Below the pieces are notes generated by a model, which worked only from the letters and a program-made list of their open reading frames with translations, was not told the DNA's origin and made no database searches. A DNA stretch of 54,838 nt from Candidatus Woesearchaeota archaeon (GTDB lineage Archaea > Nanobdellota > Nanobdellia > SCGC-AAA011-G17 > JACPNG01), in contig JAGVYI010000021.1 of assembly GCA_018303365.1 (NCBI GenBank), forward strand, positions 1 through 54,838, given 5' to 3'. This document shows positions 2,632 to 48,612 of the stretch, piece after piece; position 1 is the first letter of the stretch, and every line of letters begins with the position of its first letter. Position numbers and translations under genes: made by a program.

Positions 2632-2649
2632 TTTAACCTCCTGATAAGT

Positions 2650-3407: not shown

Positions 3408-3774
3408 ACTAAAAGTCTTCTTGGCAGACACTTATGCGCTTATAGAACTGTTAGGAGGTAATCTAAACTATAAACCTTATTTAGATCATACTTTGATAAC
3501 CACCCAGTTTAATCTTATAGAGTTATACTATCATTTTCTCCATAATTACGGCAAGAAAACAGCCGATAAATACCTACATTTATATTCAAAATTCACGATT
3601 CCAATAACCTATAGCAGTATAAAAGATGCTATGGAATTCAAGTTAAAACATAAGGAAGAAAAACTTAGCTATGTGGACTGCGTTGGCTATGCCCTTGCTT
3701 TGGAACTTGGAATAAGGTTTTTAACAGGCGATGGGAAGTTTAAGAATAAACCTAACGTAGAGTTTGTTAAGTAA
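3391..3774 (+). CDS. vapC: PIN-domain toxin VapC
   Basis: Acidic PIN positions in FLADTYALIE, SYVDCVGY and LTGDGKF. ~127 aa, translationally coupled to the antitoxin. Confidence 0.8.
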   Translation: MKDTTKLKVFLADTYALIELLGGNLNYKPYLDHTLITTQFNLIELYYHFLHNYGKKTADKYLHLYSKFTIPITYSSIKDAMEFKLKHKEEKLSYVDCVGYALALELGIRFLTGDGKFKNKPNVEFVK

Positions 3775-22046: not shown

Positions 22047-22852
22047 TTTGTTTGAAATAGGCCCTCATCCCTAATTTTTTTGATTGCTTTTTCTGACCAT
22101 ACCACAAGTCTTCCTGACTCAGTTCCGGGTGCGAGGTTACTTGTGTTAAGGTACTTCACTTTAACTATATCTACCCCATATATATTCTTCATTGATTTTT
22201 CTGCATTGCATTTATCTGCGACAACAATAAGTGGGCCTTTTTTTATTTTGTATTTTCTTGCCCTTGCCTTTCCTTTTCCTGCCCTCACTTTTTTCTGCTT
22301 CACCCTTATCAGCTCTTCTTTTAACCCTATTTTCTCTAATAGTGCCCTTGCCTTCTTTGTTGTTTCTATTGTTTCTATTTTCTCTTCAACTATCAGCGGC
22401 ACCTTCTCGACTTTGTGCCCTCTCAGTTTTACTATTCCTAGGATCGTACTTGCGTTTAATGCTGCACGGATTGCTTTTTGTTTTTCCTTTTTGTTTATTT
22501 TCTTATCCCAGATCTTGCTTGCTTTGGGGGGGTGTGCTCTTCTTCCTCCGACTGTTCCTGGAGCAACAGCACCAACCCAGTAAAAGTTTTGTCCTCTTGC
22601 TGACATTGTTTTTCTTGGTATCCTTGAGATTCCTTTTCCATAAGCCCCTTTGTATTTTCTTCTTCTCCTTGAGAGTTTTGCTACCTGTCTCATGCCTGCT
22701 TTTTCTTTTGCCCCATAGGCCTGCCTTTTATTAGCCTGAATTGTTTGTACTGCTTTTTTGATTACATCTGGTCTGTATGTCTCTTCAAATTGCTCTGGCA
22801 GTTCAATACTTCCTGTCTTTTTCCCTTCAATGTCAAGAACATCAACTTTCAT
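22043..22852 (-). CDS. rpl4: 50S ribosomal protein L4 (uL4)
   Basis: RQAYGAKEKAGMRQVA..GGRRAHPPKA, and operon position. Confidence 0.95.
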   Translation of the reverse strand: MKVDVLDIEGKKTGSIELPEQFEETYRPDVIKKAVQTIQANKRQAYGAKEKAGMRQVAKLSRRRRKYKGAYGKGISRIPRKTMSARGQNFYWVGAVAPGTVGGRRAHPPKASKIWDKKINKKEKQKAIRAALNASTILGIVKLRGHKVEKVPLIVEEKIETIETTKKARALLEKIGLKEELIRVKQKKVRAGKGKARARKYKIKKGPLIVVADKCNAEKSMKNIYGVDIVKVKYLNTSNLAPGTESGRLVVWSEKAIKKIRDEGLFQTK

Positions 22853-23802
22853 TGTTTGCTCTCCTTTGAAACATAAACTATCTCTGGTTGCATTATTTTT
22901 GTTTCTTTTCTTATTGGTTCTGTTAGAATCACTAGCCTCTTTTTTGGACCAGAGACTGACCCTTTGAGAAGGACTGTGCTGTTCTTTAGCAGACCATAAT
23001 GCGTGATTCCACCTTTTTGGTTGAGGTCTTGTGGTTTTTTTGTAATGGCCATCAGCCAGCGATTGTATTCTGTTCTCATATGGTATCCCATTTTTCCTGG
23101 TTGCGGTACACTAAATGCTACCCTTTTTGGAGTCCATGGTCCTAAGCTTCCTACACCCCTTTTCGTTTTCTCTGCTTTATGCTGCCTTATTTTTACACCA
23201 AAGCGCTTTACAGTTCCTTGAAACCCCTTTCCTTTGGTTATTGCGTGCACGTCTACTTTTTGCCCTTCTTTGAAGACATCCTCTATTTTGATGTCTTTTT
23301 CTAGGAAGGCCTTTGCCTGCTCAATTTTATTCTTTTTTTCTCCAGATAAGGCTATTTCAAATATTTCTGGCTTCTTTTTGCCGATGCCAGTTAATTTAGG
23401 CTGGGTATAGACTAGGAGTCTTAAATCATCAAACTCTTCTGGTTCTAAGCCTTTTTTAGGTATATTTGATTTTCTTTGTAACTCTTTTTCTACTTTTTTT
23501 GCTGGAAGCTGCCCAATTACCTTAAAAATCTCTCCATCCTTTTTGTAAAACCTTATTGCTAATGGCTTTATGGGAGGACACTCAATTATTGTTACAGCTT
23601 CACTGACTATTTCCCCTTTTGTGGTCTTTTGAGAATTATCCCTTATTTGAATGTGGGTCATTCCAGCTTTGTAACCAGCAAATGCCAACAATCTTGGCTC
23701 TTTTCGCTCTGCCCATTTCCTTACTCTTGCATATGGTCGTTTTGCCCTCTTTCTAGGCCAAAACTGCATACTTCCTCTTCTGGGTGACCTTGTTCTTGGC
23801 AT
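22849..23802 (-). CDS. rpl3: 50S ribosomal protein L3 (uL3), first gene of the r-protein operon
   Basis: MPRTRSPRRGSMQFWPRKRA..FAGYKAGMTH..GKGFQGTVKR. Confidence 0.96.
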   Translation of the reverse strand: MPRTRSPRRGSMQFWPRKRAKRPYARVRKWAERKEPRLLAFAGYKAGMTHIQIRDNSQKTTKGEIVSEAVTIIECPPIKPLAIRFYKKDGEIFKVIGQLPAKKVEKELQRKSNIPKKGLEPEEFDDLRLLVYTQPKLTGIGKKKPEIFEIALSGEKKNKIEQAKAFLEKDIKIEDVFKEGQKVDVHAITKGKGFQGTVKRFGVKIRQHKAEKTKRGVGSLGPWTPKRVAFSVPQPGKMGYHMRTEYNRWLMAITKKPQDLNQKGGITHYGLLKNSTVLLKGSVSGPKKRLVILTEPIRKETKIMQPEIVYVSKESKQ

Positions 23803-23963: not shown

Positions 23964-24458
23964 TTATGTTGTACAATATTCAAGGACCATCTCGAATCTT
24001 TCTTGTTGTCCACTTGAGGATCCTGTTATTATCCTTCTTTCTACGGTCTTTTCTCCAAGGCAGGAATTTCCTACCAATATGATATCTTGCGGGTTCTGAG
24101 TGTTCTTTATCAAAATCTGAAGGTTTACTTTTTGGTTTGTGTTTACCCTCCCTTTAATTATTTGCAATTCTTTTGCCAGATATTCTTGCCGCGCTTCTCC
24201 GTTTCCACAGGTGCTTTGCCTTGGGATTCCCCTTCTGATAATTTCTTCGATAGATACTGGACGCGCGGGAATTGTATCCGTTCTTTCGCAGGGTGTCGCT
24301 TTCAAGATTGCTGTAAGTAAACTTGCAGTATATGCACTTTCCCTTCCAATAGCTTTCTCCTGAGGCTTTGTTCGTAGTGTTACAAATAAGATTATTATGA
24401 AAATAAGCAGTACCACAATTACCAGAAGTCCAATGATCTCTGTCTGCCCCTTTTTCAT
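23964..24458 (-). CDS. type IV pilin-like protein with class III signal peptide (164 aa)
   Basis: MKKG|QTEIIGLLVIVVLLIFIIILFV: a short basic leader ending KG, Q at +1, E at +3, then a ~20-aa hydrophobic helix. 4-nt overlap with the upstream gene. Confidence 0.75.
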   Translation of the reverse strand: MKKGQTEIIGLLVIVVLLIFIIILFVTLRTKPQEKAIGRESAYTASLLTAILKATPCERTDTIPARPVSIEEIIRRGIPRQSTCGNGEARQEYLAKELQIIKGRVNTNQKVNLQILIKNTQNPQDIILVGNSCLGEKTVERRIITGSSSGQQERFEMVLEYCTT

Positions 24459-25045
24459 CTGTAGCTTTCTATAATAAGTTCTCCTATCCTATACTCATTT
24501 TTTCTGTCTTCTGCAGCATTTGGAAAATAGAGTGACACTGGTACTGATATTTTGTTTACTTCTGTTATTGTTGCCGGTCTGCTTTCATAGATTATCCAAG
24601 TATCACAGTTGTTCGGATATACCTCTTGGTTGTACTTTTCCTGGGTGCATTCCTGGTTTTCAACCTGCCCTTGTAGTTCTGGGTATACTTGCTTTACCAA
24701 AACCCTTTTTCTACCAAATATTGTTGCATAATACCCCTTTTCTTCTCCATCTATTACTTCTTTTGCTATGAGCAATTTTAATGTGTCAATACAATCCTCT
24801 CTTCTTACATTCTTGCTGCATTCAATTTCCGGCATGCCCTGAATTGCTCTGAGTTCCACTTCTGCTTTCTGACTTAATATTTCCCCACCTTTCTTTTGAA
24901 TGCTTTGTTTTAACACTCCAGTATAGAAAACGATTCCAACGACGATGAGCACAGTAACAATAAAAATGACCATAATCATCTCTATAAGCCCAATTTGACC
25001 TTTCTTAGAATACTTGGCCTTTCCCCTCACTTCTGAGTACCTCAT
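24455..25045 (-). CDS. type IV pilin-like protein with class III signal peptide (196 aa)
   Basis: ..KYSKKG|QIGLIEMIMVIFIVTVLIVVGIVF. 41-nt overlap with the upstream gene. Confidence 0.7.
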   Translation of the reverse strand: MRYSEVRGKAKYSKKGQIGLIEMIMVIFIVTVLIVVGIVFYTGVLKQSIQKKGGEILSQKAEVELRAIQGMPEIECSKNVRREDCIDTLKLLIAKEVIDGEEKGYYATIFGRKRVLVKQVYPELQGQVENQECTQEKYNQEVYPNNCDTWIIYESRPATITEVNKISVPVSLYFPNAAEDRKNEYRIGELIIESYR

Positions 25046-26069
25046 TAAGATTTTGTATTATCTCTTTCTGTTGAGCTATTTCCTGTAAGTCTGCCTGTGT
25101 TAGCTGCCTAACTTTTATCTTTTTATTTTCAAGGGTGGTTATTAACGTATGCAGGCTTTCCTTTATACGAAGATAGGTTGGATTTGGGCTTAATTGGTCT
25201 TGCATATCCTTTGCAAATAGTTTTTCAGCCCTTTTTTCGTATACTTTGGTTACCTTTTCCATTCTTTCGAATGCAGCCTCAAGAGAGCAGTCATACGACT
25301 TCTTATCTTTTGCAAATATAGACCCATAGAGCATTGCCTTTCCAAAAAAGACTGTTGTTTCCTGCCCTTCTTCTTTGTAGAAAGTCACAACCCCTGTGCA
25401 TTCGCTGTCTTCTCTGTTTCCCTGTTCGTCACACTTTTCTCCATCTGTTTGAATTTTGAGAACCTCTGCTGTTGGTGCTGGAGCAACTGTCGGTTCCTGA
25501 TTGATAAAAACATATTTTTTTACTTGTCCTGATTGTGGGGTATAGCTGTTTGTTTTTACGTTGAATATTTTTGGTATAAACTCAAAGTTATCACAGCATG
25601 GTTCTCCTTGTCTTTGGATTCCAACCAACTCTTCAGCTAGTCTTCCTGTTCCTTGAACAATGTATTCTGTCTGCCCATCTGCCAGAAAAAAGAAATTCAT
25701 TATCCTGTAAGGGTACTCCCAACTTACAGTCCATACCTTTAGTTTGTCCGCTTTTAATTCTGTGTTACTAAATATTGCTTCCTGGGTGCGTATTTGTGGT
25801 GAATTTTCTACACGCAGAACGCCGCATACTGGTTTGTTGACAGTAATTCCCTGTTTCGCAGCTAGTTGAATCTCCTTATTCGCGTTTGTTGCTACTTCGA
25901 GGGCCCTAAGATTATCTTCTAGCGCATTTACTGTCTGGATATTTCCTACCTCTTTAGAGATGTTTGATTGTCTTAGCGCTGACTGTACAAAGAAAGATAA
26001 AATGATTATCCCTGCAATTGCTACAAAAATATATTGAAATACCGGAGCGATACCTCTTTTTTCTTTCAT
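25005..26069 (-). CDS. large pilin-like protein with class III-type signal peptide (354 aa)
   Basis: MKEKRG|IAPVFQYIFVAIAGIIILSFFV. Globular Cys-containing head and a C-terminal helical region. Confidence 0.6.
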   Translation of the reverse strand: MKEKRGIAPVFQYIFVAIAGIIILSFFVQSALRQSNISKEVGNIQTVNALEDNLRALEVATNANKEIQLAAKQGITVNKPVCGVLRVENSPQIRTQEAIFSNTELKADKLKVWTVSWEYPYRIMNFFFLADGQTEYIVQGTGRLAEELVGIQRQGEPCCDNFEFIPKIFNVKTNSYTPQSGQVKKYVFINQEPTVAPAPTAEVLKIQTDGEKCDEQGNREDSECTGVVTFYKEEGQETTVFFGKAMLYGSIFAKDKKSYDCSLEAAFERMEKVTKVYEKRAEKLFAKDMQDQLSPNPTYLRIKESLHTLITTLENKKIKVRQLTQADLQEIAQQKEIIQNLNEVLRSEGKGQVF

Positions 26070-26076
26070 TATTCAT

Positions 26077-29000
26077 TTATTGTGCTGGTTGTACCTTAAT
26101 TGTTCTTTCGTTTCCAAACACATCCTGACACCTGACAGTGTACGGCTCTCCTGCCCAGTTTGCCTGATGCTCTTTGCCTTCGTCTATCATTGGTGTTCCT
26201 TCTCCAAACCTAAAATTATCTGTTGCTGCATATTCGCATATTGCATCTTCACTTGTTTGAATGTGTAAGATTTGCTTGTTATTTTCAAGATAAATTCCAG
26301 TAATTATTGGAGCGTCTAAGTCTACACGAACATTGACTGTTGTCTGACCGTCTGCCTCATTTCCTGCGTCATCTCTGCATTTTACATTGAATGCATACCT
26401 TCCTGTTTGAAGAGTTTCAAATGTTTGAGTATGGATGCTTTGTCCGGTATTCTTGAATGGGGCCATACTTTCAAAAATCGTATCTTCTCCACCATATCCA
26501 CAGATTGCCTGTCCGTTTCCTGACCCCCCTCCTGTCTCTACAGTTAAAGTTAGGTTGTTTACAAACAACGTTCCACTTGGGCTTATTTCTTTTATGGTTA
26601 GGGATAGTGTTCCTATGATCGTGAATTCAAATGCTTCTTCGTTTGTATTTCTCTGGTCTTCTGGAGCACTTGGCTTATCTTGGCACTTAAAGAAGAACTC
26701 ATTTTCGTCTTCTATAAGTCTTGTTAGTGTTGTTTGACATTCGTATAATCCGCGCAGACTTGGTGATGTTGCAAATGAGCTTCTTGCGCAGTTGAACTCT
26801 TCTTCGAGATCATTGTACGGTTTATCTGCTCGTGACCAGCGACATAGACTTGGTTCGTTTACATAAATACTTAGTGGAGCTTCCTCTGTTCCATGGGGTA
26901 TAAATGCTCCGTTCTGAATACTCGTCCTCTCGATTTTCGGTGCAGTGAGGTCTGGTCCTGGTTTTACCCTGAATTTTATAAAATAGTCTCTTTCATTTTT
27001 GTTTCCAGTGGCGTCTTGGCAGCGGATATAGATTGTATTTACCCCGCCATTTGTTATTCTTAATGCATCTTCTGCCACTAATTCACTTGTTATCCCTAAT
27101 GCAGTGGTGTGATTATAAGAGAATGCAGATGCTCCGAAGTATCTATTCATCATGTCTTCAAATCTTATTGAATGATTTGTATCGTACTTGCACTGTGCCG
27201 GCTCGTTTGTGTTGATGCCGATTGTTATCGGACTGAATGGCTCTATTCTTTCGTTTATTTGGTATCCTTTGTTCCCCTGCTCTGTTACTTCCCTTAAGGT
27301 TAATCCCCTTGCAAGGTCTTCTGGCGCAGGACTAATAATTGGGGAGTTCACATCATTCGGATTTAAGTTTACACAACGCTCTTCACTTGTTCCCTGATTG
27401 ATTAAGCCACAAAGTTGTCCCAAGGATTTACAACGATACTCTGAGCAGGGCAAGTTTCCCTCATTGCAGAGTTCACATTTGTTTCCTCCTGTTGGCGCTT
27501 GCCAGGCAGAGCATTGAACTGCATAAGTTACTTCTTTTACTTGTTCTGTTGCGGCATTGATGATGCTTGCTATTGATATTGCTATAAAGGCCGGTCCTAT
27601 GAATCCGATAGGATTTAGACCTACTCCTGCAAATGGATTAAAGAGTGCGCTGAACCCTCCTACTGGTGCTAATATAGCTGGTGATCCTCCCGCCACACTA
27701 CCTGTTACTGCTGTTGCTACAAGACCTCCCACCTGCTTTCCTGCAAATGCCGCAACAAGGGTTGTTGCTGTCAGTCCTCCAAACCCAATTGCTCCAGAAA
27801 CACCAAGTCTTCTTACAAATCCTGCTTTGGTATAATCTTCATCTGAAATTGTTGAGAGCGTATCGAAATCCCCGATATCTTCTCTTGTCAGGGCGTATCC
27901 GTGAAAGAAATTCCTTTCTTCTGAAGCTGTATTCCCATATCCATCTAAAGTTATGTCTCCTGCAATGTTGTAATATGCCCCACAATCTCCAAGGCTTTTA
28001 CAATAATTATTTCCTGCGACAACCCAGTCTTTTGTTATGCACTGGCAATTATTGACACATTCCCAATCATCCCCTGCAAATATTCTTGTAACTGCTCCTT
28101 TCTTCTTGAATGTGACTGTGCACTCTTTATTTCCAATATCACAAGCACTTTCTGCGTTTGTAGTGGGGGTTCTTTGGATTGCAGATGGAACTCCTTCTCT
28201 TTGGGACTGCTGGTTTGTATTCTGCTGCGTCTCTCCAGACCAGAATGCAAGGCCTGGCGGTACTTGTGGAACGCATACTCCTGCGTTTGCAGGTATGACT
28301 GCGTTTCCATCCTCATCAGTATTGGGTGTTGTTATAATCCCAGCTTCAAGCCAAGAGCAATCCCTTTGTGCGTTGTTTTCACAGCATTTTCTTGCACAAC
28401 ATGCAGTTTTTTCTGCACCTGAGAATTGGTCGCATTCTGAACCACATGTTTTTACATCATTGCATGTTTGGCATGTCTCCCACCTATTGTCCCTACACGC
28501 AGCTTCTACGTATTCCCCTCGTGCTTTGAAACTTTCCTGGGTTCCTAGGATGTCTTGTCCTAATACCCCTTGTACACAAATTTCTTCTCTAAAGTCGCGG
28601 CATGGTTCAATTATCTCTTCCCCATTTATACAAGTGTTTCTAAAGTGGCGTGAGCCGACGAGATCTTTTCCTTGTCCGACATCACCATCATATAAACACC
28701 AACTCTCTCCATTTTTCTTTGTCCCTCCACTACTTGGACTACTATCATCATCTAATGTGGTCTGGCAGTCTATGCTTTGACATATATATTCTCCAAAGGC
28801 GGGAGTTATGCTTCTTGGTGCCTTTTTGCACAGTGTTCCCTGGGCATAATTGCAGTTTCCACAAGAGGGGTCATTTACCCCCCCTTGACAGCTTCTCTCT
28901 TGCTGCAGGACAAATCCTCCATTGTAAGCGCGTTCTTTGTTTGCATCATATATATTTTCTGGATTTCCACAGGAATCAAACCAGTAAACATCTTCTTCAA

Positions 29001-29673
29001 AGCATCCTGTTCTTTGCTGGGGGGCACATTCAGTTCCTAGTTCCTGGTTACTACAAAGGGTATCTTTATGAAACCCCACCCTCACAGTTCTTGTAACATT
29101 GCCCCCTAGTTCTCCTTCTTGCTCCTGCGCATTGCACGTCTCTCTTGTAGTAAACTGACATGTTCCATCTGGTATTACACAGGCCCCTTTGTCTTGGCTT
29201 CTGCTTTTATCAATGCAGGCCTGCTCTGTTGTTATTGTTTCATCAAAACTTATTTCTGCATTTGGAAAGTTGCTTGCTTCCCGTCTGCATTGCGTCTGGG
29301 TTACAAAGAAACTTTCTGTTCCTACAATGCAGCATCCTCTGGTACACTCTGAAACCTGACACTCAGACTGCGGCCTCCACGTACCACCTTGGTTTTCGCA
29401 AGTTGCTTGCGGAGCGTTTTTGTAACATATCCCTTTTTGTGCATCCACGCAACACCCTATTTGGCAGTAGGATGTTTCTTCACAAGTTGTCGGGACTGCG
29501 AATTTTCCACTACTGGTATCGCAGTTGCTGATCTCTGTGTATACACAGGAGTCTCCGTTTAGTGTCTCTTGGCAACATGCTCTTTGCTGGGCGTAGGCTG
29601 CTACTTTTGGGGCTATTAAAAATAACCCCAAGAAAAGTAATATCATTACTAAGGTATGCACGCTTTCTTTCAT
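26077..29673 (-). CDS. giant Cys-rich surface protein, paralog A (1198 aa): signal peptide, Cys-rich domain, Gly/Ala hydrophobic segment, Cys knot, four two-Cys modules
   Basis: Signal peptide MKESVHTLVMILLFLGLFLIAPKVAAYA|QQ. About 51 Cys by hand count in residues 31-570. Clearly paralogous to 30487..33729. No named family recognised. Confidence 0.85.
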   Translation of the reverse strand: MKESVHTLVMILLFLGLFLIAPKVAAYAQQRACCQETLNGDSCVYTEISNCDTSSGKFAVPTTCEETSYCQIGCCVDAQKGICYKNAPQATCENQGGTWRPQSECQVSECTRGCCIVGTESFFVTQTQCRREASNFPNAEISFDETITTEQACIDKSRSQDKGACVIPDGTCQFTTRETCNAQEQEGELGGNVTRTVRVGFHKDTLCSNQELGTECAPQQRTGCFEEDVYWFDSCGNPENIYDANKERAYNGGFVLQQERSCQGGVNDPSCGNCNYAQGTLCKKAPRSITPAFGEYICQSIDCQTTLDDDSSPSSGGTKKNGESWCLYDGDVGQGKDLVGSRHFRNTCINGEEIIEPCRDFREEICVQGVLGQDILGTQESFKARGEYVEAACRDNRWETCQTCNDVKTCGSECDQFSGAEKTACCARKCCENNAQRDCSWLEAGIITTPNTDEDGNAVIPANAGVCVPQVPPGLAFWSGETQQNTNQQSQREGVPSAIQRTPTTNAESACDIGNKECTVTFKKKGAVTRIFAGDDWECVNNCQCITKDWVVAGNNYCKSLGDCGAYYNIAGDITLDGYGNTASEERNFFHGYALTREDIGDFDTLSTISDEDYTKAGFVRRLGVSGAIGFGGLTATTLVAAFAGKQVGGLVATAVTGSVAGGSPAILAPVGGFSALFNPFAGVGLNPIGFIGPAFIAISIASIINAATEQVKEVTYAVQCSAWQAPTGGNKCELCNEGNLPCSEYRCKSLGQLCGLINQGTSEERCVNLNPNDVNSPIISPAPEDLARGLTLREVTEQGNKGYQINERIEPFSPITIGINTNEPAQCKYDTNHSIRFEDMMNRYFGASAFSYNHTTALGITSELVAEDALRITNGGVNTIYIRCQDATGNKNERDYFIKFRVKPGPDLTAPKIERTSIQNGAFIPHGTEEAPLSIYVNEPSLCRWSRADKPYNDLEEEFNCARSSFATSPSLRGLYECQTTLTRLIEDENEFFFKCQDKPSAPEDQRNTNEEAFEFTIIGTLSLTIKEISPSGTLFVNNLTLTVETGGGSGNGQAICGYGGEDTIFESMAPFKNTGQSIHTQTFETLQTGRYAFNVKCRDDAGNEADGQTTVNVRVDLDAPIITGIYLENNKQILHIQTSEDAICEYAATDNFRFGEGTPMIDEGKEHQANWAGEPYTVRCQDVFGNERTIKVQPAQ

Positions 29674-30444
29674 TTATCTTGGTTCACCTTGGACTGCAAA
29701 TTGGAAGGTATATGGGCTTCCTTCTTTTTTTATTATGTATATCTTGTCTGGATAAGGCCTTTGTTTGTATATCTTTATTCTTCCTTTCTTGTCAATCATG
29801 TAGAATAAAGTCTCAAACTCTCCGTCTGTTGTCTCTGCATCAAGAATATCATTTGTTACCTCTAGTATCTCCCCCAGTGGCACTTCTAATTTTGTTTGTA
29901 CTTCTTCTAGGCTAACTCTGTTGTTACTTGCTACCAAAGTTATCGGAGCCTTTACTGTTACCTGCACTTCTTCTCTTCTAATTGTTGTGTTGATTGTCCT
30001 TTCATTCTCTTGGATATTATAAGGTCTTAGCTGTCCAAAACTTTGTATGTCAAGGCATCCTTCAAGGACATTACTTATTTCTGTCGCTATTTCTTTTTCT
30101 ATTTCCTGAGATGTTCTGAGACGGTTGTAACATGCTTCTGTCTGTGGTATGTTAAAACATAGATAACTTACTTTAGAATCATTCCATAATCTGAATGTAT
30201 CCTGGGCTGGCTGAAGGTATCCTCCTTGCTTTCCAATTTTGTTAACTATTTCTAATAGTCCATAATCATTCTTACCACGTTGCACACATTCTTCAATGTG
30301 ATTTCTTATTGAAACTAGTTCTCCTTGGAGGTTTTCTGTTGTTGTTGGTAGCAGTACGGTCCTCCTTGCAAAAAAGAATAGCGAGGCTAGGGCAATAAGA
30401 ATAATTCCCAATACGACAAAGATTGTTACCTGCCCCTTTTTCAT
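29674..30444 (-). CDS. type IV pilin-like protein with class III signal peptide (256 aa)
   Basis: MKKG|QVTIFVVLGIILIALASLFFF. Its stop codon directly abuts the ATG of the 1198-aa gene. Confidence 0.7.
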   Translation of the reverse strand: MKKGQVTIFVVLGIILIALASLFFFARRTVLLPTTTENLQGELVSIRNHIEECVQRGKNDYGLLEIVNKIGKQGGYLQPAQDTFRLWNDSKVSYLCFNIPQTEACYNRLRTSQEIEKEIATEISNVLEGCLDIQSFGQLRPYNIQENERTINTTIRREEVQVTVKAPITLVASNNRVSLEEVQTKLEVPLGEILEVTNDILDAETTDGEFETLFYMIDKKGRIKIYKQRPYPDKIYIIKKEGSPYTFQFAVQGEPR

Positions 30445-30466
30445 TTTCTTATTCCTTTTTACGGAT

Positions 30467-30474
30467 TATATAAA
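30467..30474 (-). promoter_or_regulatory. candidate internal TATA box (TTTATATA on minus strand)
   Basis: Lies 23-30 nt upstream of the ATG at 30444, in the 42-nt gap after the 1080-aa gene. The geometry fits a leaderless or short-leader start. Confidence 0.35.
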
Positions 30475-30486
30475 TATTTTGTCTTT

Positions 30487-33400
30487 TTACGGGTGGATTA
30501 CCATTTCTTGCATTCTGTTCTGTTTTGCATCTTCACAGATTAAGTGATACTCTGCTGCTTCTAGTCCTATTATAAATTGTTCCTGTTCTTGCCCTATTAT
30601 CGTACCTTCTTCATAACTAAACGACTTTGTGTCTATTTTGCAAGTGCCTTTTTCATTTAGAATTATTACTAGCTGACCCTGTTCTTTGTATATATTCTTT
30701 ATTTTCGGAGGGGTTCTATCTTGCTTTATTTCAAAACTTACCTCGCGTTGCGCTTGGTTCCCAATTTCATCTTCGCACCTTATCGGAATGTTATACTTGC
30801 CTTCAGGCAAGGTAAGTTGCTGAATGTGGACTGTGCTTTGTGTATTTTTCATGTTGACCCAATGTCCACCTTGTATTTGCATTTGACATATTGCTTTGCC
30901 ACCTTCCGCCCCACCTGTTGTTTGTATTTCAATGACAATCTCATTTTCAAGAAGTTCACCTTGTGGCTGGATTCCTGCGATTAGTAGTTCGCTTGTTTTT
31001 TCTATTCTTTTTTGTATTCCTTGGGTGTTTATATTTCCTTGCTGGTCCTGGCATCGGATGTAATATGTTGTTGTCTGGTCCAAGTTTATGTTTGTGCTAC
31101 ATATATATTTTCCATTACTTCTAGGGGTTTGATCGCAAAGAAGTGGGTCACCCATATCTTCAAAAGGGGCATCTACTTTTGCATACCTGCACACTGCTTG
31201 TTCGTTAACCTGAACTTCTAAGATTGTTTGGTCAACTCCGTTTGGAAGCTTGTCTGTTTCTCTTAGTAATTCTACTCTTGGAGGGCTTAGGTCTACAGTA
31301 CTTACTTGGTAGCTTATGCGATAATCTCTTTCATTTTTGTTTCCTGCTACGTCCTGGCATCGGATGTAAATATCTTTTTGTCCACCTGTACCTTCACTTT
31401 TTGTTAGTGAGTGGGTTGTTTTTAGACTTGACCCTTCTATTGTTGATATCATATCATCGAATCTTTGGTTTGGTTGGTTTGCATATTTACACTTAGCTAG
31501 CTCATCTGTTTCTATACCGAATTCAATTGTTTGGTGTATTTCTACTTCCGGGGTAATATCATATCCTACTTCCGTATTCCTTAGCTGAAATCCTTCTGTT
31601 AGTTTGCCTTGCAATGGTCTTATTACCGGGCTTTTTGTATCATTTCTTCCTGCGTTGAAACAAGACTGTCTTGTTGTGCCTTCATTTTCTGGGATGTACT
31701 GGCATGCTTGTCCTATGGACTTACAGCGATATTCTGTGCATTCTTTTCCATCTTGTCCGCATATATCACAATTTGCCCCTCCAGGCGGAGCTTGCCAAGG
31801 TTGGCATGTTACGCTATAGTGTTTTTCTTTTACTTTTGCAAATAGGTGGATTATAACAAAGAAAACCGCAACTGCGAGGACAATCCATGGTATTGCAGCC
31901 AGTATTGTTCCTGCTGCACTTGCTCCAGTAGCAGTGCTTCCTGCTGCAGCATTTGCTGCACTGATTGCATTTCCTGTTGCAAATTCTGCTATTCCAGTGT
32001 ATACCGGTGCTGCGGTTTCTGCTGCAGCTAAGCTTGAGAGTGTTACTGTTGCTGTGCCTGTTGTTGTGGCTGCGGTTCCTATTCCGATTGCTTTTCCAAG
32101 CAGGGCACTGATGCTAGGCAGGCCTATCTTTGGTCCAATAATTCCAAGTGTTGCGAATCCTAGTTGGATCCATGCTTTCGTAGGGACAGCATCTAGTCCT
32201 CGATATTGACTTGCATCAAAGTCTTCTGTGCTTAGTCCTCTTCCTGCGCTTTGCAGCTTTACAAATTCTTCTTGTTGTGGCGCTCTTGGTGGGTTTGTCT
32301 CCAGTCCTTCTTTTGTATAATCTCCGTCGACATTGTAATATGCTCCACAATCTCCAAGGGATATGCAATATGCATTTGCTTGGTCTATCCATGGCTGCCT
32401 TTCACATTCACAATTAGCTTCACATTTCCAGCTGGAAAGCAGTGTGCGTTTTACGTAATAAACTGTGCACTCTTGGCTTGCTTGACTACAAATTTCTTTA
32501 GCATCTTCTACATGGACCTGCCCTGTTGTTTTTGTTTCCCAGAACTTTAGACCAGGTGGTACTTGGGGTATACACCTTCCTTGGTTTTCGTTTCCAATCC
32601 AGCTACAGCTTTTCTGTGGATCTAGACAACACTCTCTATCCTCTTGAGACTTTTGCTGAAATTCCCTATTGTTCCTTGCATCTTTTGCTGTGTTGCATGT
32701 GGTTGCACATTCTTCCCAATTGTTTGTTACACACAATGCTTCATTATATGTTCCCCTTCCTGTTCCAGTTACTCTTGTTTGTACGCACGCCTGCTCACGA
32801 TAGTCTCTACAAGGTTCAATTACTTCTTCTCCGTTTACACAAAGTCTTCTAAAATGGCGTGAGCCAACGAGGTCTGTGCCACTTCCAGTGATTCCTTCAT
32901 ATTCACACCAGCTTTCTCCATTCTTTCTTAGTCCTCCATCGCCTTCTGTTGCAGGGCTGTTGTATGTTTGTAGGCAGTCAATGCTCTTACATACAAACTG
33001 CCCGTTTTCCTCGCCACATGTTAATCCTTGGTCATAACTGCACTCTTGAATTATGTCTTCTTTGTTATTACACGAATCGAACCAGTATATATCTCCTTCA
33101 AAACATCTTTTGTGATCTTTTGGTCTACATGTACAGGACTCAACTCTGCTACAATGCTGGTTCTGAAAGAAGTCTCCTTCTTGTTGTATACAATCCCCCC
33201 TTTTTTCTATGGTACACACGCCTTCTTTTTCACAACATCCTCCTTCTTCTTGCTGACAGAAACCAGCACATTCCTGTTCACTTAGGGTTTCCCTAAACTC
33301 TGAGTTTGCCCTCCCAAATGTTGCGGCTTGCCCAATACATTCCAGATTGGTTTCGATGCTGCATTGGTTTTCAATAATACAACATCCTTGCCTACATTCT

Positions 33401-33729
33401 TGGGTGTTACAATCCGCTCTTGGATCAAATATCCCCCCTTGATTTTTACAGGTTGCTTTTGGTGTGTTTGCTTGGCAGTTTCCTTCATTATTGCGGCAAC
33501 AGCCTACTTGGCAGAAATCAGTCTGAGCGCAGTTTAATCCTTGTACACTCCTGTAGTCTGGGTTACATTGTTCCTGACCTGTTTGTATGCAGGTTTCTCC
33601 TACGATGGTCCTTTCGCAACAGACTGTTTGTTTGGCATATGCCTGTTCTGGATTGTATACAGCGAATATTGTTAGAATGAGAATTATTATTTCTAAACAG
33701 GCTTTTACCTTTTGACCTCTTTGTTGCAT
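30487..33729 (-). CDS. giant Cys-rich surface protein, paralog B (1080 aa), same architecture as paralog A
   Basis: Signal peptide ..CLEIIILILTIFAVYNPEQAYA|KQ. Motifs shared with paralog A include CFEGDIYWFDSC, KNGESWC..DLVGSRHFR..C.NGEE.IEPCRD, PQVPPGL.FW, SLGDCGAYYN and IYIRCQD..GNKNERDY. Confidence 0.85.
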   Translation of the reverse strand: MQQRGQKVKACLEIIILILTIFAVYNPEQAYAKQTVCCERTIVGETCIQTGQEQCNPDYRSVQGLNCAQTDFCQVGCCRNNEGNCQANTPKATCKNQGGIFDPRADCNTQECRQGCCIIENQCSIETNLECIGQAATFGRANSEFRETLSEQECAGFCQQEEGGCCEKEGVCTIEKRGDCIQQEGDFFQNQHCSRVESCTCRPKDHKRCFEGDIYWFDSCNNKEDIIQECSYDQGLTCGEENGQFVCKSIDCLQTYNSPATEGDGGLRKNGESWCEYEGITGSGTDLVGSRHFRRLCVNGEEVIEPCRDYREQACVQTRVTGTGRGTYNEALCVTNNWEECATTCNTAKDARNNREFQQKSQEDRECCLDPQKSCSWIGNENQGRCIPQVPPGLKFWETKTTGQVHVEDAKEICSQASQECTVYYVKRTLLSSWKCEANCECERQPWIDQANAYCISLGDCGAYYNVDGDYTKEGLETNPPRAPQQEEFVKLQSAGRGLSTEDFDASQYRGLDAVPTKAWIQLGFATLGIIGPKIGLPSISALLGKAIGIGTAATTTGTATVTLSSLAAAETAAPVYTGIAEFATGNAISAANAAAGSTATGASAAGTILAAIPWIVLAVAVFFVIIHLFAKVKEKHYSVTCQPWQAPPGGANCDICGQDGKECTEYRCKSIGQACQYIPENEGTTRQSCFNAGRNDTKSPVIRPLQGKLTEGFQLRNTEVGYDITPEVEIHQTIEFGIETDELAKCKYANQPNQRFDDMISTIEGSSLKTTHSLTKSEGTGGQKDIYIRCQDVAGNKNERDYRISYQVSTVDLSPPRVELLRETDKLPNGVDQTILEVQVNEQAVCRYAKVDAPFEDMGDPLLCDQTPRSNGKYICSTNINLDQTTTYYIRCQDQQGNINTQGIQKRIEKTSELLIAGIQPQGELLENEIVIEIQTTGGAEGGKAICQMQIQGGHWVNMKNTQSTVHIQQLTLPEGKYNIPIRCEDEIGNQAQREVSFEIKQDRTPPKIKNIYKEQGQLVIILNEKGTCKIDTKSFSYEEGTIIGQEQEQFIIGLEAAEYHLICEDAKQNRMQEMVIHP

Positions 33730-33791: not shown

Positions 33792-34541
33792 TTAATCTGT
33801 TGAGACTCGTGGTGCTAATATAAATGAAAGCCTAAGTTTATCTTTGATGGTGTACTCGGTCTTTAGCGGATACTCTTTGTCAAATTCAAGTGTTGCCATG
33901 TCTGCTAACTTAGCTCCTTTGACTATTTTTTTAAGATATTCTAGTGAATACTTAGAAGGTATTTTTTCACTTCCGTTCAAGCTGATACTTGTTTTATCAT
34001 CTCCCTTTATTTGCATGTGGGCCGCGTTGAACTTGCTTTCTGCCTGAATTGAGAAGAGGCCTTTTTCTGCTTCAAACTTAACGGATTCTGCCACTACCCC
34101 CATATCTTCAATTGCTTCTTCAAGAAGGTTTGATGGTAGCTCTATTCTTGTTGAAAACTTTAGCTCGGGTATCTTTTGTTCTCTTCCCTCAGCTTCAATT
34201 AAAGTGAGTTTAAATGTCCTTGTTATTTCTCCCTTTATTCCTACAACAAGTTGGTTGTCTTTCTGGTCTATTCCTATCTCTAAGGTGTCTGAAGGTTTTG
34301 CTCTTCGTAGGATTTGTTTGAACTGGTCGAGATTTATGGCTATTTTAGTTTCTTTCTCTACACTGTATTCTACAAAAGCGCTTGCAAGCATATGGAATAT
34401 TACCATTGCTACATTTGCAGGATCCATTGCTATGAGTTCTATTCTGTTCTTGTCAATACTAATATTGACCTCGTTGACTAACTCAGAAATTATACTTATG
34501 CTCTCTTTGAGCAATCTTGGTTCTGCGAGTACAAATTTCAT
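33792..34541 (-). CDS. pcn: DNA polymerase sliding clamp PCNA
   Basis: MKFVLAEPRLLKESISIISELVNEVNISIDKNRIELIAMDPANVAMV. ATG at 34541 is preceded by GGGGATAGG; the track start at 34556 is TTG. Confidence 0.9.
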   Translation of the reverse strand: MKFVLAEPRLLKESISIISELVNEVNISIDKNRIELIAMDPANVAMVIFHMLASAFVEYSVEKETKIAINLDQFKQILRRAKPSDTLEIGIDQKDNQLVVGIKGEITRTFKLTLIEAEGREQKIPELKFSTRIELPSNLLEEAIEDMGVVAESVKFEAEKGLFSIQAESKFNAAHMQIKGDDKTSISLNGSEKIPSKYSLEYLKKIVKGAKLADMATLEFDKEYPLKTEYTIKDKLRLSFILAPRVSTD

Positions 34542-34598
34542 TTTTCCTATCCCCAAATCTAGATATATATTCTTTATTGTTATGTTTCCTATATTTTA

Positions 34599-35227: not shown

Positions 35228-35800
35228 CTATATTCCTTTTCCTATTCCCAGTTTTTGGAGAGCCATCACCGCACTTATCTTCACCCAACCAAGGAACGGT
35301 ACTTTTAACCTAGCTTTTCCTACGATGTTTTCTGGAGAAACCCTTTCCTTGTCAGGAGATGGGTTGTTATCCCCTTTGGTAGTTTGAGGGTTCTTTGCAA
35401 CAACCCTATGAATTATCGGGATTGTTCTTGTATCCTCTTGTTTCATATATACTATGACCTCCCCCCTTTTTATGTTTTTTGACCCAGTAAGGACTATAAT
35501 GTCTCCTTTATTAAAACCATTTTTAAATGAATATCCTTTAAACTCTTCTTTTGTTATCCCTTCTTTTTCATACCATTTCCCGTTGTTCTCCCACCATATT
35601 TCAAATCCTTGGCTATTATGCTCCATGCTTCCAGAGACAACAGCAACTACTGGCAGGGGAGTTCCAAGTAATAGGCCTAATACTGGGTAGATTGCGAACT
35701 TTACGAGAAAAAAGGCAAGAACAATTGTGACTAACCAAGAGAGAAGGCTGTCTTCCTTCCATAAAAAGTGCCATATCCTTCGCACAGTCTTTGAGAACAT
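35228..35800 (-). CDS. signal peptidase I (archaeal/eukaryal S26B type)
   Basis: VVSGSMEH (catalytic Ser box), GDIIVL, IIHRVV and TKGDNN boxes. N-terminal TM. Confidence 0.88.
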   Translation of the reverse strand: MFSKTVRRIWHFLWKEDSLLSWLVTIVLAFFLVKFAIYPVLGLLLGTPLPVVAVVSGSMEHNSQGFEIWWENNGKWYEKEGITKEEFKGYSFKNGFNKGDIIVLTGSKNIKRGEVIVYMKQEDTRTIPIIHRVVAKNPQTTKGDNNPSPDKERVSPENIVGKARLKVPFLGWVKISAVMALQKLGIGKGI

Positions 35801-35837
35801 ATTCTGGGCTTTTCTGTGCCCTATAAAAAGATTTGTT

Positions 35838-36107
35838 TTATTTTAGACTTTTTTCAAACTTTTGCTTTACTTCCGCATTCTTCTTTTGCAGCCTTTGTGC
35901 TGCTTCTTTAAGACTCTTTTTTGGGTCTTTTGATTCTACAAATAGGATTGGGGTGTCTACTAGGGCATGTTTCATCTCATAGCCCGCTGCTTGAACGGTT
36001 TTATCTTCCCACAACTCTTTTCTTATCAGATTTACAAGGGTGTGTCCTTCTTTTTTTATTTCTATTTTAAGTGATTCTTTTTCTTTGTTTCGCACTTCAA
36101 TTTCCAT
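35838..36107 (-). CDS. rpoL: DNA-directed RNA polymerase subunit L (Rpo11)
   Basis: LKIEIKKEGHTLVNLIRKELWED..AAGYEMKHALVDTPILFVES. ATG at 36107 follows GAGAGGGGAAAGG; the track start is TTG. Confidence 0.85.
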   Translation of the reverse strand: MEIEVRNKEKESLKIEIKKEGHTLVNLIRKELWEDKTVQAAGYEMKHALVDTPILFVESKDPKKSLKEAAQRLQKKNAEVKQKFEKSLK

Positions 36108-36132
36108 CCTTTCCCCTCTCAAGAAGCTGTTT

Positions 36133-36771
36133 TTAAACCTTTCTCCTTCTTTTTTCTAACATCCACACCCCTACATCTGTGTAGTATGTCTTTTTTCTAT
36201 GGAAGGTTAGGGTGGGTTTAAGAGGGAATTTTATAGGTATAATCCCCTTTATACTAAATCCATTATCTTCTGCGAGCGTTGCAATAAACCTTTCTCCTGC
36301 TATTTTGTGAATACTGTATATTGTCGGCGCCAACTCCATAGCTTTAAGTAGAAATGCTTTATCTGCATGGGGCTGCTTTGTACCAAATGGCGGATTTTGA
36401 ATGATGACCTGCGCTCTTTTTTTGTAGAGTCTAATCTCTCTTTGTACAAACTCTGCTCTATATTTTCTTTTTAGATTTTTCTCTACTGCTATTTTGTTTT
36501 CTTCTGCCTTCTTGAGAGCTTCAAGATCGATGTCAACAAATGTTACTTTTCTTGCGCCTAGGATAAGCGCACCTATTCCTAGGATACCGGTTCCGCACCC
36601 TAAATCAATGCAGGATTTGCCTTCTATGTCTCCGTTGAGAAATGCTTTCCAAATGACCTGTGCAGCTATTTCTGCTTCTGTCTGATATTGCTCTAGCTTA
36701 ACTTTAGGATTCTCGAAGGTGGCTAGCTTTGTTAATTCTACTGCCACTGATTTTTTTGTTATTTTTCCCAT
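36133..36771 (-). CDS. SAM-dependent N6-adenine methyltransferase, METTL5/COG2263-like
   Basis: DLGCGTGILGIGALILGA..VTFVDID (SAM motif I/II) and IIQNPPFG (NPPF catalytic motif). Confidence 0.8.
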   Translation of the reverse strand: MGKITKKSVAVELTKLATFENPKVKLEQYQTEAEIAAQVIWKAFLNGDIEGKSCIDLGCGTGILGIGALILGARKVTFVDIDLEALKKAEENKIAVEKNLKRKYRAEFVQREIRLYKKRAQVIIQNPPFGTKQPHADKAFLLKAMELAPTIYSIHKIAGERFIATLAEDNGFSIKGIIPIKFPLKPTLTFHRKKTYYTDVGVWMLEKRRRKV

Positions 36772-37240
36772 TTCCCCCTATTGTGATAATGTCTCCTATC
36801 GTCATCTCATCTTGCTTCTTCTTCTGGACCCTTTTGGTTTCTTCTTCTACTTCTTTTTGGAGTATTATATTTAAGTTTTGTTCGAGTTTTTTTGTTAGTT
36901 CAATAGATGGCTCTATTTGATTGTTTTCTATTTTTTGGATTAGCGACTCTTTTTGTGCCATTCTTGTTGCCAACTCTCTTTGTGTCAACCCTTTTATTTC
37001 CCGCGCTTTTCTTACTCTTTCCCCGATATTCTCGACAAGAACTACTGTATTCTTATCTCTTTTTGGTGGTCTAGAAATGTTCCTTTGCTTTACAAATGCT
37101 TTTTGAGCTGGCTTTATTACTCTTCCATAGCCGCTACATTCTTTGCATGTTTGGAGTGTCGTACCTTCTATTTTCACTTGCGCGAGCTCATCTTCTCTAC
37201 CACACAGCTCGCAGCTGCCCATTTTATTGTAATTTCTCAT
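36704..37240 (-). CDS. mbf1: multiprotein bridging factor 1 (aMBF1): Zn ribbon plus XRE-type HTH
   Basis: CELCG..CKECSGYG, then RVRKAREIKGLTQRELATRMAQKESLIQKIENN. Overlaps the methyltransferase ORF by 68 nt. Confidence 0.85.
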   Translation of the reverse strand: MRNYNKMGSCELCGREDELAQVKIEGTTLQTCKECSGYGRVIKPAQKAFVKQRNISRPPKRDKNTVVLVENIGERVRKAREIKGLTQRELATRMAQKESLIQKIENNQIEPSIELTKKLEQNLNIILQKEVEEETKRVQKKKQDEMTIGDIITIGGNGKNNKKISGSRINKASHLRES

Positions 37241-37273
37241 AAACTATTTAAACCTTTCTTCAGAGGGTTTTCT

Positions 37274-47996: not shown

Positions 47997-48033
47997 GCTG
48001 TTTTCTTGTGTATGTTTGAAAAGAGGTTTATCG

Positions 48034-48612
48034 ATGTATTCCCACCATAGGAAAAAGAGAGGTGCACTTGAACTTTCTATTAGTACAATCATCATTGTCG
48101 TGATTGGCATTACTCTTCTTACTCTTGGAATTGTTTTTGTAAAAAATATCTTTGGTAAACTTACCAACCTTTCTGATGATGTCTTTGATACAGCTAATGT
48201 CGAGTTGGGACAGCTTGGTGCAGGTGATGCTCGGCTCAAGGTTCCTACGACTGTGACTGTTAATCAAGGAAAATCTAAGCGATTCGATATTGTAATTGGT
48301 AATGATGGCACCACAACAGGTAGCTCTTTTACCCTTAGGCTCACTAGAAGCGGAAGTGCAGCAACCATCCCTGAAATCCAAGTCCAGGCCCGCATTATTG
48401 TCGGGACAACAGGAAATTCTCATACACTCACAATTTCTCCTGGTAGGACCGCCAAAGTCCCCCTGCAAGTTATAGCCATTTCTACAGCTCCGTTGACAAA
48501 TGGTGCTAATGATCCAGCGTATGCTGTTGAGGTAACTTCTGCTAACGGTGATCCATACGAGACTTCTGCTTTTGTCATCAATGTTGAGAAAGGCGCTGGA
48601 TTTTTCGGATAG
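48034..48612 (+). CDS. type IV pilin-like protein with class III signal peptide (candidate major pilin)
   Basis: MYSHHRKKRG|ALELSISTIIIVVIGITLLTLGIVFV, then a Thr/Gly/Ser/Val-rich beta-strand domain without Cys. The track start at 48016 is TTG. Confidence 0.7.
   Translation: MYSHHRKKRGALELSISTIIIVVIGITLLTLGIVFVKNIFGKLTNLSDDVFDTANVELGQLGAGDARLKVPTTVTVNQGKSKRFDIVIGNDGTTTGSSFTLRLTRSGSAATIPEIQVQARIIVGTTGNSHTLTISPGRTAKVPLQVIAISTAPLTNGANDPAYAVEVTSANGDPYETSAFVINVEKGAGFFG

Follow-up and report, generated by a model that had tools for sequence, protein, structure and literature searches.

A conserved, probable envelope gene cluster of pilin-like and giant cysteine-rich proteins in Woesearchaeota/Nanoarchaeota-type DPANN archaea

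Contact with other cells is essential to DPANN archaea, yet the proteins of their envelopes and contact sites are almost all annotated as "hypothetical". Here we describe a six-gene cluster from a tiny, probably symbiotic Candidatus Woesearchaeota archaeon that encodes four small pilin-like proteins (S1 to S4) interleaved with two giant cysteine-rich proteins (G1 and G2). The cluster lies within a stretch of 54,838 nucleotides (nt; positions 1 to 54,838 of contig JAGVYI010000021.1, assembly GCA_018303365.1), the whole of which was analysed and is called the window below. Our literature search found no paper describing this cluster; the nearest mention is of a secreted protein family, cls.004306, which is discussed below together with related type IV filament (TFF) loci of other archaea.

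In Methanococcus, substrates of the peptidase EppA carry glutamine (Q) at position +1. The Epd pilus (TFF system 1) of Methanococcus maripaludis resembles our cluster in combining class III signals with this residue and in having many pilins together with accessory or adhesin-like proteins. System 1 occurs in DPANN archaea, and the Epd pilus has a dedicated peptidase (bioRxiv 10.64898/2026.04.22.720090), which is named EppA (PMC4858521). The Epd locus, however, encodes an ATPase, two platform proteins and EppA within itself, none of which is present in our cluster; the Class_IIIsignal/DUF361 and other pilin hidden Markov models (HMMs) fail on the cluster's proteins, and nothing described for the Epd system corresponds to its giants.

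Archaeal type IV pilus (T4P) loci commonly pair minor pilins with large signal-peptide-bearing "adhesins", surface layer (S-layer)-like proteins and conserved cysteines (PMC4858521). The Thermoproteales T4P loci of clades 4B and 4G contain two large proteins, one S-layer-like and the other a signal-peptide-bearing "adhesin or minor pilin", alongside several small predicted minor pilins, and nearly all of these proteins have conserved cysteines (PMC4858521). Compared by description rather than by sequence, this is the same general recipe as that of our cluster, but the Thermoproteales loci centre on an ATPase and TadC, whereas our cluster has neither, is flanked by PCNA on one side and by S-layer or ribosomal genes on the other, and belongs to a different lineage. 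Nanoarchaeal T4P ATPases lacked identifiable cognate pilins in an earlier survey (Makarova, Koonin & Albers 2016, PMC4858521). An "enigmatic" secreted family of DPANN "dark matter", cls.004306 (NEQ255), is restricted to DPANN archaea, where it occurs in 43 of 67 genomes, often beside predicted S-layer-like proteins with immunoglobulin (Ig) domains (Makarova, Wolf & Koonin 2019, PMC6393860). That context, again compared by description only, resembles the one reported here, although the cluster itself is not described in that work.

The reading that we favour, with a probability of about one half, is that of a vertically inherited envelope cluster of Woesearchaeota/Nanoarchaeota-type DPANN archaea, in which pilin-like proteins and two giant, membrane-anchored, disulfide-rich proteins are coupled genetically to an S-layer gene. 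The cluster fits best as a set of TFF-related pilin-like subunits and accessory surface proteins that are encoded away from their motor. New relative to described T4P loci are the giant paralogs with a bipartite ectodomain and a probable central anchor, the pairing of S1 with a giant, and the fixed core-genome position tightly beside an anchorless S-layer gene. The cluster defines at least six new protein families within about 10 kb; in relatives, where it is found on near-megabase contigs (0.5-0.9 Mb), it takes up roughly 1% of the contig. It also provides candidates for two problems: the tethering of an anchorless S-layer, and pilin-like proteins encoded away from a pilus motor.

In the window, the cluster consists of six tightly packed, co-directional minus-strand genes (Table 1). 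An earlier note, made from the sequence alone, had listed their coordinates, lengths and N-termini and had placed them between PCNA and the rpl3 operon; open reading frame (ORF) calling reproduced all of this exactly, with PCNA upstream and the rpl3-rpl4-rpl23 operon downstream. From G1 to S4, the first junction is a 42-nt gap, at the second the genes abut, the third is a gap of 7 nt, and at the last two the genes overlap by 41 and 4 nt. The note's gaps and overlaps hold, but its statement that the G2 ATG abuts the preceding stop codon is true of the longest ORF only, because public gene calls for the same species start later and give 1189 or 1194 amino acids (aa) rather than 1198. This species (>99.87% nucleotide identity) is present in several public samples, although the exact G2 product has no public record. 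The unannotated cluster recurs in hundreds of related genomes, usually beside the S-layer gene, and so probably specifies a core structure of the cell surface. We considered and ruled out an origin from a mobile element or a virus, given a G+C content (0.39-0.43) that is the same as in the flanks, a fixed core-genome position and the absence of mobile-element genes inside the cluster.

Conservation of gene order in related DPANN genomes, a check named in the earlier note, proved strong. We assembled 82 related loci (1.13 Mb), 79 of them from a metagenome scan with an alignment of the family (A1), called their ORFs and built family HMMs. Unsupervised clustering of the 1,021 ORFs yielded, as the most recurrent families, the giants (77 loci), S1 (68), S0 and S2 (38 each), S3 and S4 (33 each), PCNA (30) and an S_layer_C-type protein (15). 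The genes form one compact co-directional unit with the conserved order G-S1-G-[S0]-S2-S3-S4(-S-layer), which occurs in two versions: type A, as in the window, reads PCNA-(x)-G-S1-G-[S0]-S2-S3-S4-[S-layer], and type B reads PCNA-S1-G-S1-G-S0-S2-S3-S4-[S-layer]. S0 is a fifth pilin-like gene (~165 aa) that lies between G2 and S2 in most relatives and is missing from the window and from two relatives (L002 and L058).

Small toxin-antitoxin-like or helix-turn-helix genes are inserted between cluster genes at some loci with the order left intact (L030, 4658-7745; L010, 3313-5712; L005, 13638-14162). These insertions indicate that the cluster tolerates interruption and that its genes may not all be co-transcribed. 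AT-rich intergenic stretches with TATA-like strings lie upstream of G1 and of S1 in the window, a weak hint only.

We next consider the small proteins. All four in the window start in class III fashion, with a short basic leader that ends in G or A and is followed by about 20 hydrophobic residues; Q occupies +1 in S1, S3 and S4, and an acidic residue is found at +3 in S4 and at +6 in S3. The [KR][GA] site and the hydrophobic segment are kept in orthologs of all five small families. Across the 82 loci, the full [KR][GA]↓Q motif (the arrow marks the predicted cleavage site) is present in 148 of 228 small cluster proteins (65%) as against 4 of 246 controls (1.6%), the controls being all other ORFs of the same loci with an N-terminal hydrophobic segment. 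The class III signal architecture that the earlier note had ascribed to the four proteins is thus real and conserved. The dipeptide alone is common, lying near the hydrophobic segment in 80 of the 246 control ORFs, and the four controls with Q at +1 are themselves giants of distant lineages that begin "KKA↓QxSYxQI...".

The pattern is not due to chance. When all six frames of the window were searched for ORFs of 90 aa or more that begin with a basic leader, [KR][GA] and at least 14 hydrophobic residues, six ORFs were returned: the four cluster proteins, an antisense artefact inside PCNA and a stand-alone PilA-like ORF (Table 1). The last is the only other real window ORF with the class-III-like pattern (five real matches, four in the cluster). 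It adjoins tRNA-Phe and CysRS genes, is publicly annotated as a 192-aa gene and has no Pfam match. We regard it as a candidate major pilin with a putative link to the cluster; as such, it implies a class III signal peptidase in the organism.

The five small families differ in how much of the signal is fixed. S1 has Q at +1 in 72 of 79 sequences and no other fixed signal position, and it lacks an acidic residue in its N-terminal helix; its alignment (A2) contains invariant Q5, C53, C96, C105 and C130, and its genes always stand beside a giant gene. S2, which is homologous to the shorter S0, retains the [KR][GA] motif in 36 of 38 loci and has conserved cysteines, but the +1 position of S0 and S2 is more variable and no other conserved position was noted. 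Among 33 orthologs of S3, 22 have a recognisable motif, with Q at +1 in 21 of these and E at +6 in 14. The 33 S4 orthologs show Q at +1 in 27/29 and an acidic residue at +3 in 26/32, with Q5 and G10 invariant. Profile comparison with hhalign showed S3 and S4 to be homologous over their N-terminal 55 residues (probability 95%) and unrelated in their heads, whereas the resemblance of S1 to S2 is limited to the leader and transmembrane (TM) segment. A homologous N-terminal helix with divergent heads, as seen in the sequences of S3 and S4, is the way in which pilin families are related. Conserved cysteines occur in all small families, which is consistent with an extracellular location.

The giants were described in the earlier note as cysteine-rich secreted paralogs outside any named family, and this characterization was borne out. 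G1 and G2 are paralogous along their full length (32% identity), carry 67 (6.2%) and 68 (5.7%) cysteines compared with 1.03% in housekeeping proteins of the window, and receive no Pfam or NCBIfam assignment above cutoff. Both follow the same plan of a Sec signal, a cysteine-rich N-terminal half, a hydrophobic linker and a C-terminal half of four tandem Ig-like domains. The G1 linker is rich in Ala, Gly and Thr and contains one strong TM segment (residues ~600-635), and sub-threshold Big_3_3/Big_13 matches lie at residues 950-1012. G2 was modelled with AlphaFold2 from a 50-sequence alignment (mean predicted local distance difference test score, pLDDT, 77.7). Its N-terminal half has no Pfam match, contains invariant cysteine columns and is predicted to consist of short strands and few helices with pLDDT mostly 80-93. 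The linker is Gly/Ala-rich over residues 604-696, where pLDDT is ~30, and is modelled with confidence only at a helix (693-708); TM-like windows fall at 625 and 681-709.

That the C-terminal half, ~40% of each giant, consists of tandem Ig-like domains follows from the model, from Foldseek and from Big_13, which matches 26 of 35 members of the giant family (best E 7.5e-10; the window giants themselves are below cutoff). DUF4625 and Y_Y_Y also match many members, and S_layer_C (PF05124) matches neither G1 nor G2. Foldseek searches of PDB and BFVD with the whole G2 model returned generic tandem Ig and fibronectin type III (FN3) proteins among the matches listed, with a query-normalised template-modelling score (TM-score) of at most 0.17; as these lists were swamped by Ig/FN3 proteins, they do not establish "no known fold" for the cysteine-rich N-terminal half.

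The giants belong to a large and steadily conserved family. At the 90% clustering level, G2 has 642 homologs, typically 37-50% identical and 1,100-1,400 aa long, all annotated as "hypothetical" and, where the source is named, from Candidatus Woesearchaeota, Nanoarchaeota or Nanoarchaeia. An exhaustive phmmer search with the single protein against 1.84 billion representatives (50% level) found 2,904 matches at E <=1e-3, 2,300 at <=1e-10 and 1,540 at <=1e-30; strongly related members of the family thus make up at least 1,540 clusters at 50% identity, and the gene cluster itself is absent from Pfam and NCBIfam and had no PDB match in the searches run. Alignments of 50 and of 35 giants contain more than 60 invariant cysteines distributed over both halves, and the motifs VYWFDSCGN, GDCGAYYN, CxPWQAPxGG and EYRCKSLGQ are conserved. 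Identity remains steady at ~40%, which favours a structural partner; relative to the loci L001 and L002, the window giants are 37-38% identical and PCNA 50-57%. N-glycosylation sequons number one in G1 (1080 aa) and four in G2 (1198 aa), a count that looks low for proteins of this size, though no formal comparison with chance underlies this impression, and the giants appear to rely on disulfides rather than glycans.

Information on the topology of the giants comes from some type B loci of distant lineages, in which the second giant is split at the linker into two genes, Gn and Gc, sometimes with unrelated small genes between them (Table 1). Gn corresponds to G2 residues ~28-574; it has its own signal peptide and an acidic tail but lacks an anchor. 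Gc begins with a hydrophobic segment of its own, followed by the linker and G2 residues ~623/710-1189. Because each carries its own export signal, both halves of a giant are very likely extracellular, and a fused giant would then need an even number of membrane passes in its linker. Across 50 homologs the linker measures 149-399 aa, with a Gly-rich, semi-hydrophobic segment ~45-75 residues after GDCGAYYN and a conserved "N..W.YT.Y..D" helix ~10 aa before the C-terminal half. The giants are probably held in the membrane of their own cell by a central hydrophobic hairpin, although this topology is not secure.

The same linker could be read differently, as part of an apparatus for contact, fusion or pore formation at a host membrane, with the Gly/Ala-rich segment inserting into the partner membrane like a fusion peptide and the pilin-like set pushing the giants through the S-layer, helping to form the cytoplasmic bridges of DPANN-host pairs. 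The central segments are Gly/Ala-rich and only moderately hydrophobic, and those of every second homolog fall short of a classical TM helix; the Gn/Gc split falls exactly at the linker segment in some lineages; and the host organisms are DPANN archaea. We nevertheless consider this reading highly improbable. It is wholly inferential, no fusogen-like fold appears among the Foldseek matches listed (which are dominated by Ig tandems), heptad repeats and a C-terminal anchor are lacking, and the linker, with its weak conservation and varying length, resembles a loop or an anchor.

Four distant giants (L028, 1173-4640; L033, 2652-6053; L035, 7744-11193; L043, 3592-7506) start with "KKA↓Q(A/M)SY(L/T)QI(L/I)..." rather than with a plain Sec signal, and in these sequences the giant may itself be a modular pilin.

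The earlier note had likened the cluster to bacterial minor-pilin operons (fimU-pilVWXY1E) and GspH-K pseudopilin sets. As far as architecture goes, this parallel is reasonable: genes for large secreted proteins that are not pilins are accompanied by those for four to five pilin-like proteins of varied sizes, and their order is fixed. The presence of an acidic residue in some subunits (here S3 and S4) and its absence from one (S1) is likewise reminiscent of GspK/PilX-type tip subunits. It does not extend to family membership, since the cluster lacks sequence or fold homology to these systems, its cleavage motif is of the archaeal [KR][GA]↓Q type, and assembly genes are not adjacent. Whereas PilY1 combines a vWA domain with a beta-propeller, the giants are cysteine-rich proteins with tandem Ig-like domains and a probable central hairpin. 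Membership of the PilY1/PilC family was ruled out, as Pfam and NCBIfam gave no beta-propeller or vWA match, the C-terminal half of the G2 model is a tandem of beta-sandwiches and the listed Foldseek matches are Ig/FN3 tandems only; nothing in these results resembles PilY1. The tip-adhesin mechanics of PilY1 probably fail as well, because a giant held in its own membrane is no passenger of a pilus tip.

Another connection to the cell surface is provided by the gene that follows S4. In 15 of the 16 related loci that extend at least 3 kb past S4, the next gene, within 1.5 kb, encodes a PF05124-type S-layer protein. The S-layer proteins of these relatives have a Sec signal, no membrane anchor, few cysteines and 6-12 N-glycosylation sequons. 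The HMM built from them finds no homolog in the window, where the rpl3 operon stands instead; the window's lineage has lost the S-layer adjacency. We considered whether an 837-aa ORF (5671-8184, plus strand), which starts with a signal-like segment and has one further hydrophobic stretch, could be the missing S-layer protein. It matches neither the relatives' S-layer HMM nor Pfam and was rejected in this role; it may be another unannotated envelope protein.

The S-layer association, taken together with the steady conservation of the giants, argues no less for a core role in the envelope, coupled to the S-layer, than for host attachment, a putative function that is plausible. It also raises the possibility, which we hold to be rather doubtful, of a pure S-layer anchoring scaffold without a filament. 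In such a scaffold, the giants would be SlaB-like pillars that tether the anchorless S-layer protein, and the small proteins would be monotopic, N-terminally anchored subunits that bind the S-layer or the giants in the manner of ArlF/ArlG; no ATPase would be needed and host adhesion would not be primary. There is precedent for such an arrangement in ArlF, an N-helix-anchored beta-sandwich protein that binds the S-layer, and more broadly in ArlF/ArlG (FlaF/FlaG) and SlaB, which are membrane- or N-helix-anchored beta-sandwich proteins tied to the S-layer (PMC4425475). The directly downstream S-layer gene without a TM anchor, the central membrane anchor and long Ig-like ectodomains of the giants, and the failure to find an ATPase or platform gene nearby all accord with a scaffold, and ~40% identity with invariant cysteines is a pattern seen more typically in structural partners than in host-specific adhesins. 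A mere anchor, however, needs neither a strict G/A↓Q site nor a fixed buried acidic residue in S3 and S4, and the S-layer gene is not adjacent in the window. The cluster is moreover not homologous to ArlF/ArlG or SlaB and lies outside the archaellum operon; its giants show no similarity to SlaB-type proteins, being anchored centrally rather than C-terminally and carrying an additional 570-aa cysteine-rich domain.

Several results weigh against the favoured reading of a TFF-related envelope cluster. The first group concerns the identity of the small proteins, for which the pilin-family check proposed in the earlier note gave a negative answer: curated models (Pfam Class_IIIsignal, Pilin_N and N_methyl; NCBIfam) identified no pilin family in S1 to S4 or in any of 101 small proteins. 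None of the six cluster proteins has a Pfam or NCBIfam family above cutoff; the best pilin-type match is the weak one of the S3 N-terminus to ComGC (E 6e-4, with 19.9 of the 75 bits required). Searches with S1-S4 profiles against PDB sequences returned nothing. Structure modelling covered S1 and G2, so that fold comparison among the small proteins is confined to S1. The AlphaFold2 model of S1 (26-sequence alignment, pLDDT 93, predicted TM-score 0.82) is predicted to contain an N-terminal helix (residues 3-29) that is broken at residues 30-35, helices at 36-56 and 63-72, and then a globular alpha/beta head. It has no significant Foldseek match in PDB, pilin or other (best E 4e-3, TM-score <0.2), and S1 is in this sense a confident predicted fold without a PDB match. 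Its outline of an N-terminal TM helix followed by a globular head speaks for the favoured reading, whereas the break in the helix and the lack of a structural relative speak against it.

A second group concerns the motor. The earlier note had reported no pilus ATPase, platform protein or peptidase in the window, and this was confirmed for the window together with ~3 kb to its left and ~8 kb to its right. No TFF ATPase, TadC/FlaJ platform or prepilin peptidase occurs within 10 kb of the cluster in the 82 loci, clustering of the neighbours revealed no recurrent ATPase or multi-TM platform-like family, and "TGSGK" Walker A motifs are absent both from the 1.13 Mb of these loci and from the window. 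Pfam listings of neighbouring genes likewise include no PilB/FlaI-type ATPase or PilC/TadC/FlaJ-type platform. Finally, with respect to the proposed membrane anchor, neither linker segment reaches a Kyte-Doolittle value of 1.6 in 25 of 50 giants.

These negative findings would be accommodated if the small proteins were ordinary type II signal-anchor or Sec-cleaved proteins whose basic-Gly-Gln start merely looks like a class III signal. The cluster would then be a collection of unrelated envelope proteins that have nothing to do with type IV filaments. The missing pilin HMM match, the S1 model without a pilin-like fold, the neighbourhood without TFF machinery and the high frequency of [KR][GA] before hydrophobic segments in control ORFs would all be expected of such proteins. 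We judge this explanation unlikely in view of the enrichment of Q at +1 (65% of small cluster proteins as against 1.6% of controls), its invariance in the S1 and S4 alignments and the conserved acidic residue inside the hydrophobic helix of S3 and S4. It also leaves unexplained the homology of S3 and S4 over ~55 N-terminal residues and sits poorly with the canonical stand-alone pilin in the window, which implies class III processing.

Under the favoured reading of an envelope cluster with TFF-related subunits, the system could operate as follows. The small proteins would enter the membrane by their N-terminal helix and be trimmed to an N-terminal Gln by an EppA/PibD-type peptidase encoded elsewhere, a step suggested by the conservation of the [KR][GA]↓Q motif with its hydrophobic segment. 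S3 and S4, with their homologous alpha-1 helices and buried acidic residue, might stack with S0/S2 into a short complex resembling a pseudopilus or a minor-pilin assembly. This complex would probably be built on a TFF ATPase and platform encoded elsewhere and could be extended by the stand-alone PilA-like protein. S1, which lacks the acidic residue and always accompanies a giant, may be an adaptor between the complex and the giants. The giants would be exported by Sec, with the cysteine-rich half and the four Ig-like domains outside the cell and the central hairpin holding them in place, an arrangement that is partly shown. The assembly would bridge the membrane and the anchorless S-layer, and so tether or organise the S-layer, present the giants for cell-cell contact, or both.

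A bolder version, to which we assign a very low likelihood, is an undescribed envelope nanomachine specific to Nanoarchaeota/Woesearchaeota, in which a filament-derived pseudopilus of five subunits would drive or position the giants through the S-layer and the Gly/Ala segments would engage the partner membrane. If true, it would be the machinery so far lacking for the attachment of DPANN cells to their hosts and for the cytoplasmic bridges between them.

Table 1. Coordinates of cluster genes, giant-protein regions and associated features. Positions refer to the window unless a related locus is named.
Feature	Location	Strand	Description
G1	30487..33729	-	1080 aa; giant Cys-rich surface protein; ORF, paralog of G2
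S1	29674..30444	-	256 aa; pilin-like, MKKG↓QVTIF...
G2	26077..29673	-	1198 aa; giant Cys-rich surface protein; start codon ambiguous within first 9 codons
S2	25005..26069	-	354 aa; pilin-like, MKEKRG↓IAPVFQYIF...
S3	24455..25045	-	196 aa; pilin-like, ..SKKG↓QIGLIEMIMV..., Q at +1, E at +6
S4	23964..24458	-	164 aa; pilin-like, MKKG↓QTEIIGL..., Q at +1, E at +3
G2 N-terminal half (residues ~30-600)	27874..29586	-	disulfide-rich ectodomain; "CC..T..G..C" repeats, then core ending GDCGAYYN
G2 central Gly/Ala-rich hydrophobic linker (~601-710)	27544..27873	-	probable membrane hairpin
G2 C-terminal half (~711-1198)	26080..27543	-	small Cys-knot-like domain, then four Ig-like beta-sandwiches, each with conserved Cys pair
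PCNA	33792-34556		flanking gene, upstream
rpl3	22849-23802		flanking gene, downstream (rpl3-rpl4-rpl23 operon)
Stand-alone PilA-like ORF	48016..48612	+	..HHRKKRG↓ALELSISTIIIVVIGITLL.., also written ..HHRKKRG↓ALELSISTIIIVVIGITLLTLGIVF; Thr/Gly/Ser-rich, Cys-free body
S-layer gene after S4	L001 16338-19073; L002 16003-18255		also in 13 further loci
Split giant (Gn + Gc)	L027 14357-15994 + 17830-20523		type B locus
Split giant (Gn + Gc)	L063 14947-16416 + 17043-19097		type B locus
Split giant (Gn + Gc)	L072 14336-15844 + 15831-17969		type B locus
Signal-peptidase-I-like protein	35228-35800		upstream of PCNA
PMT_2-like multi-TM protein	within 36953-38668	+	upstream of PCNA
GT2 glycosyltransferase	39311-40537		upstream of PCNA
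Two unannotated proteins	40534-43390		~490 aa each, many TM segments; upstream of PCNA

Envelope-biogenesis genes on both strands occupy the region just upstream of PCNA (35228-43390) and include a signal-peptidase-I-like protein, a PMT_2-like membrane protein and a GT2 glycosyltransferase. Some of them are found upstream of PCNA in relatives too, the GT2 gene in L001 and the signal-peptidase-like gene in L001 and L002. The remaining genes of the window are archaeal housekeeping genes, encoding SecY, ribosomal proteins, a fused primase, eRF1, ValRS/IleRS-type and CysRS synthetases, Cbf5 and HerA.

Two of these housekeeping genes have unusual structures. The eRF1 homolog (43951-45426, minus strand, 491 aa) has an Intein_splicing match (E 4e-9). 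The match to its eRF1 domain 2 is broken into two parts, a sign that it may carry an insertion or a mini-intein remnant. The primase gene (8162-9637, minus strand) encodes one 491-aa protein with matches to the domains of the two DNA primase subunits, small and large, and is thus a fused PriS-PriL. At its left end (63-2289 and 2371-3774, per L088), the window resembles a variable island, in which a transposase fragment (63-590) and an AAA_14/DUF4143 ATPase (811-2289) occur together with MazE/PIN toxin-antitoxin genes.

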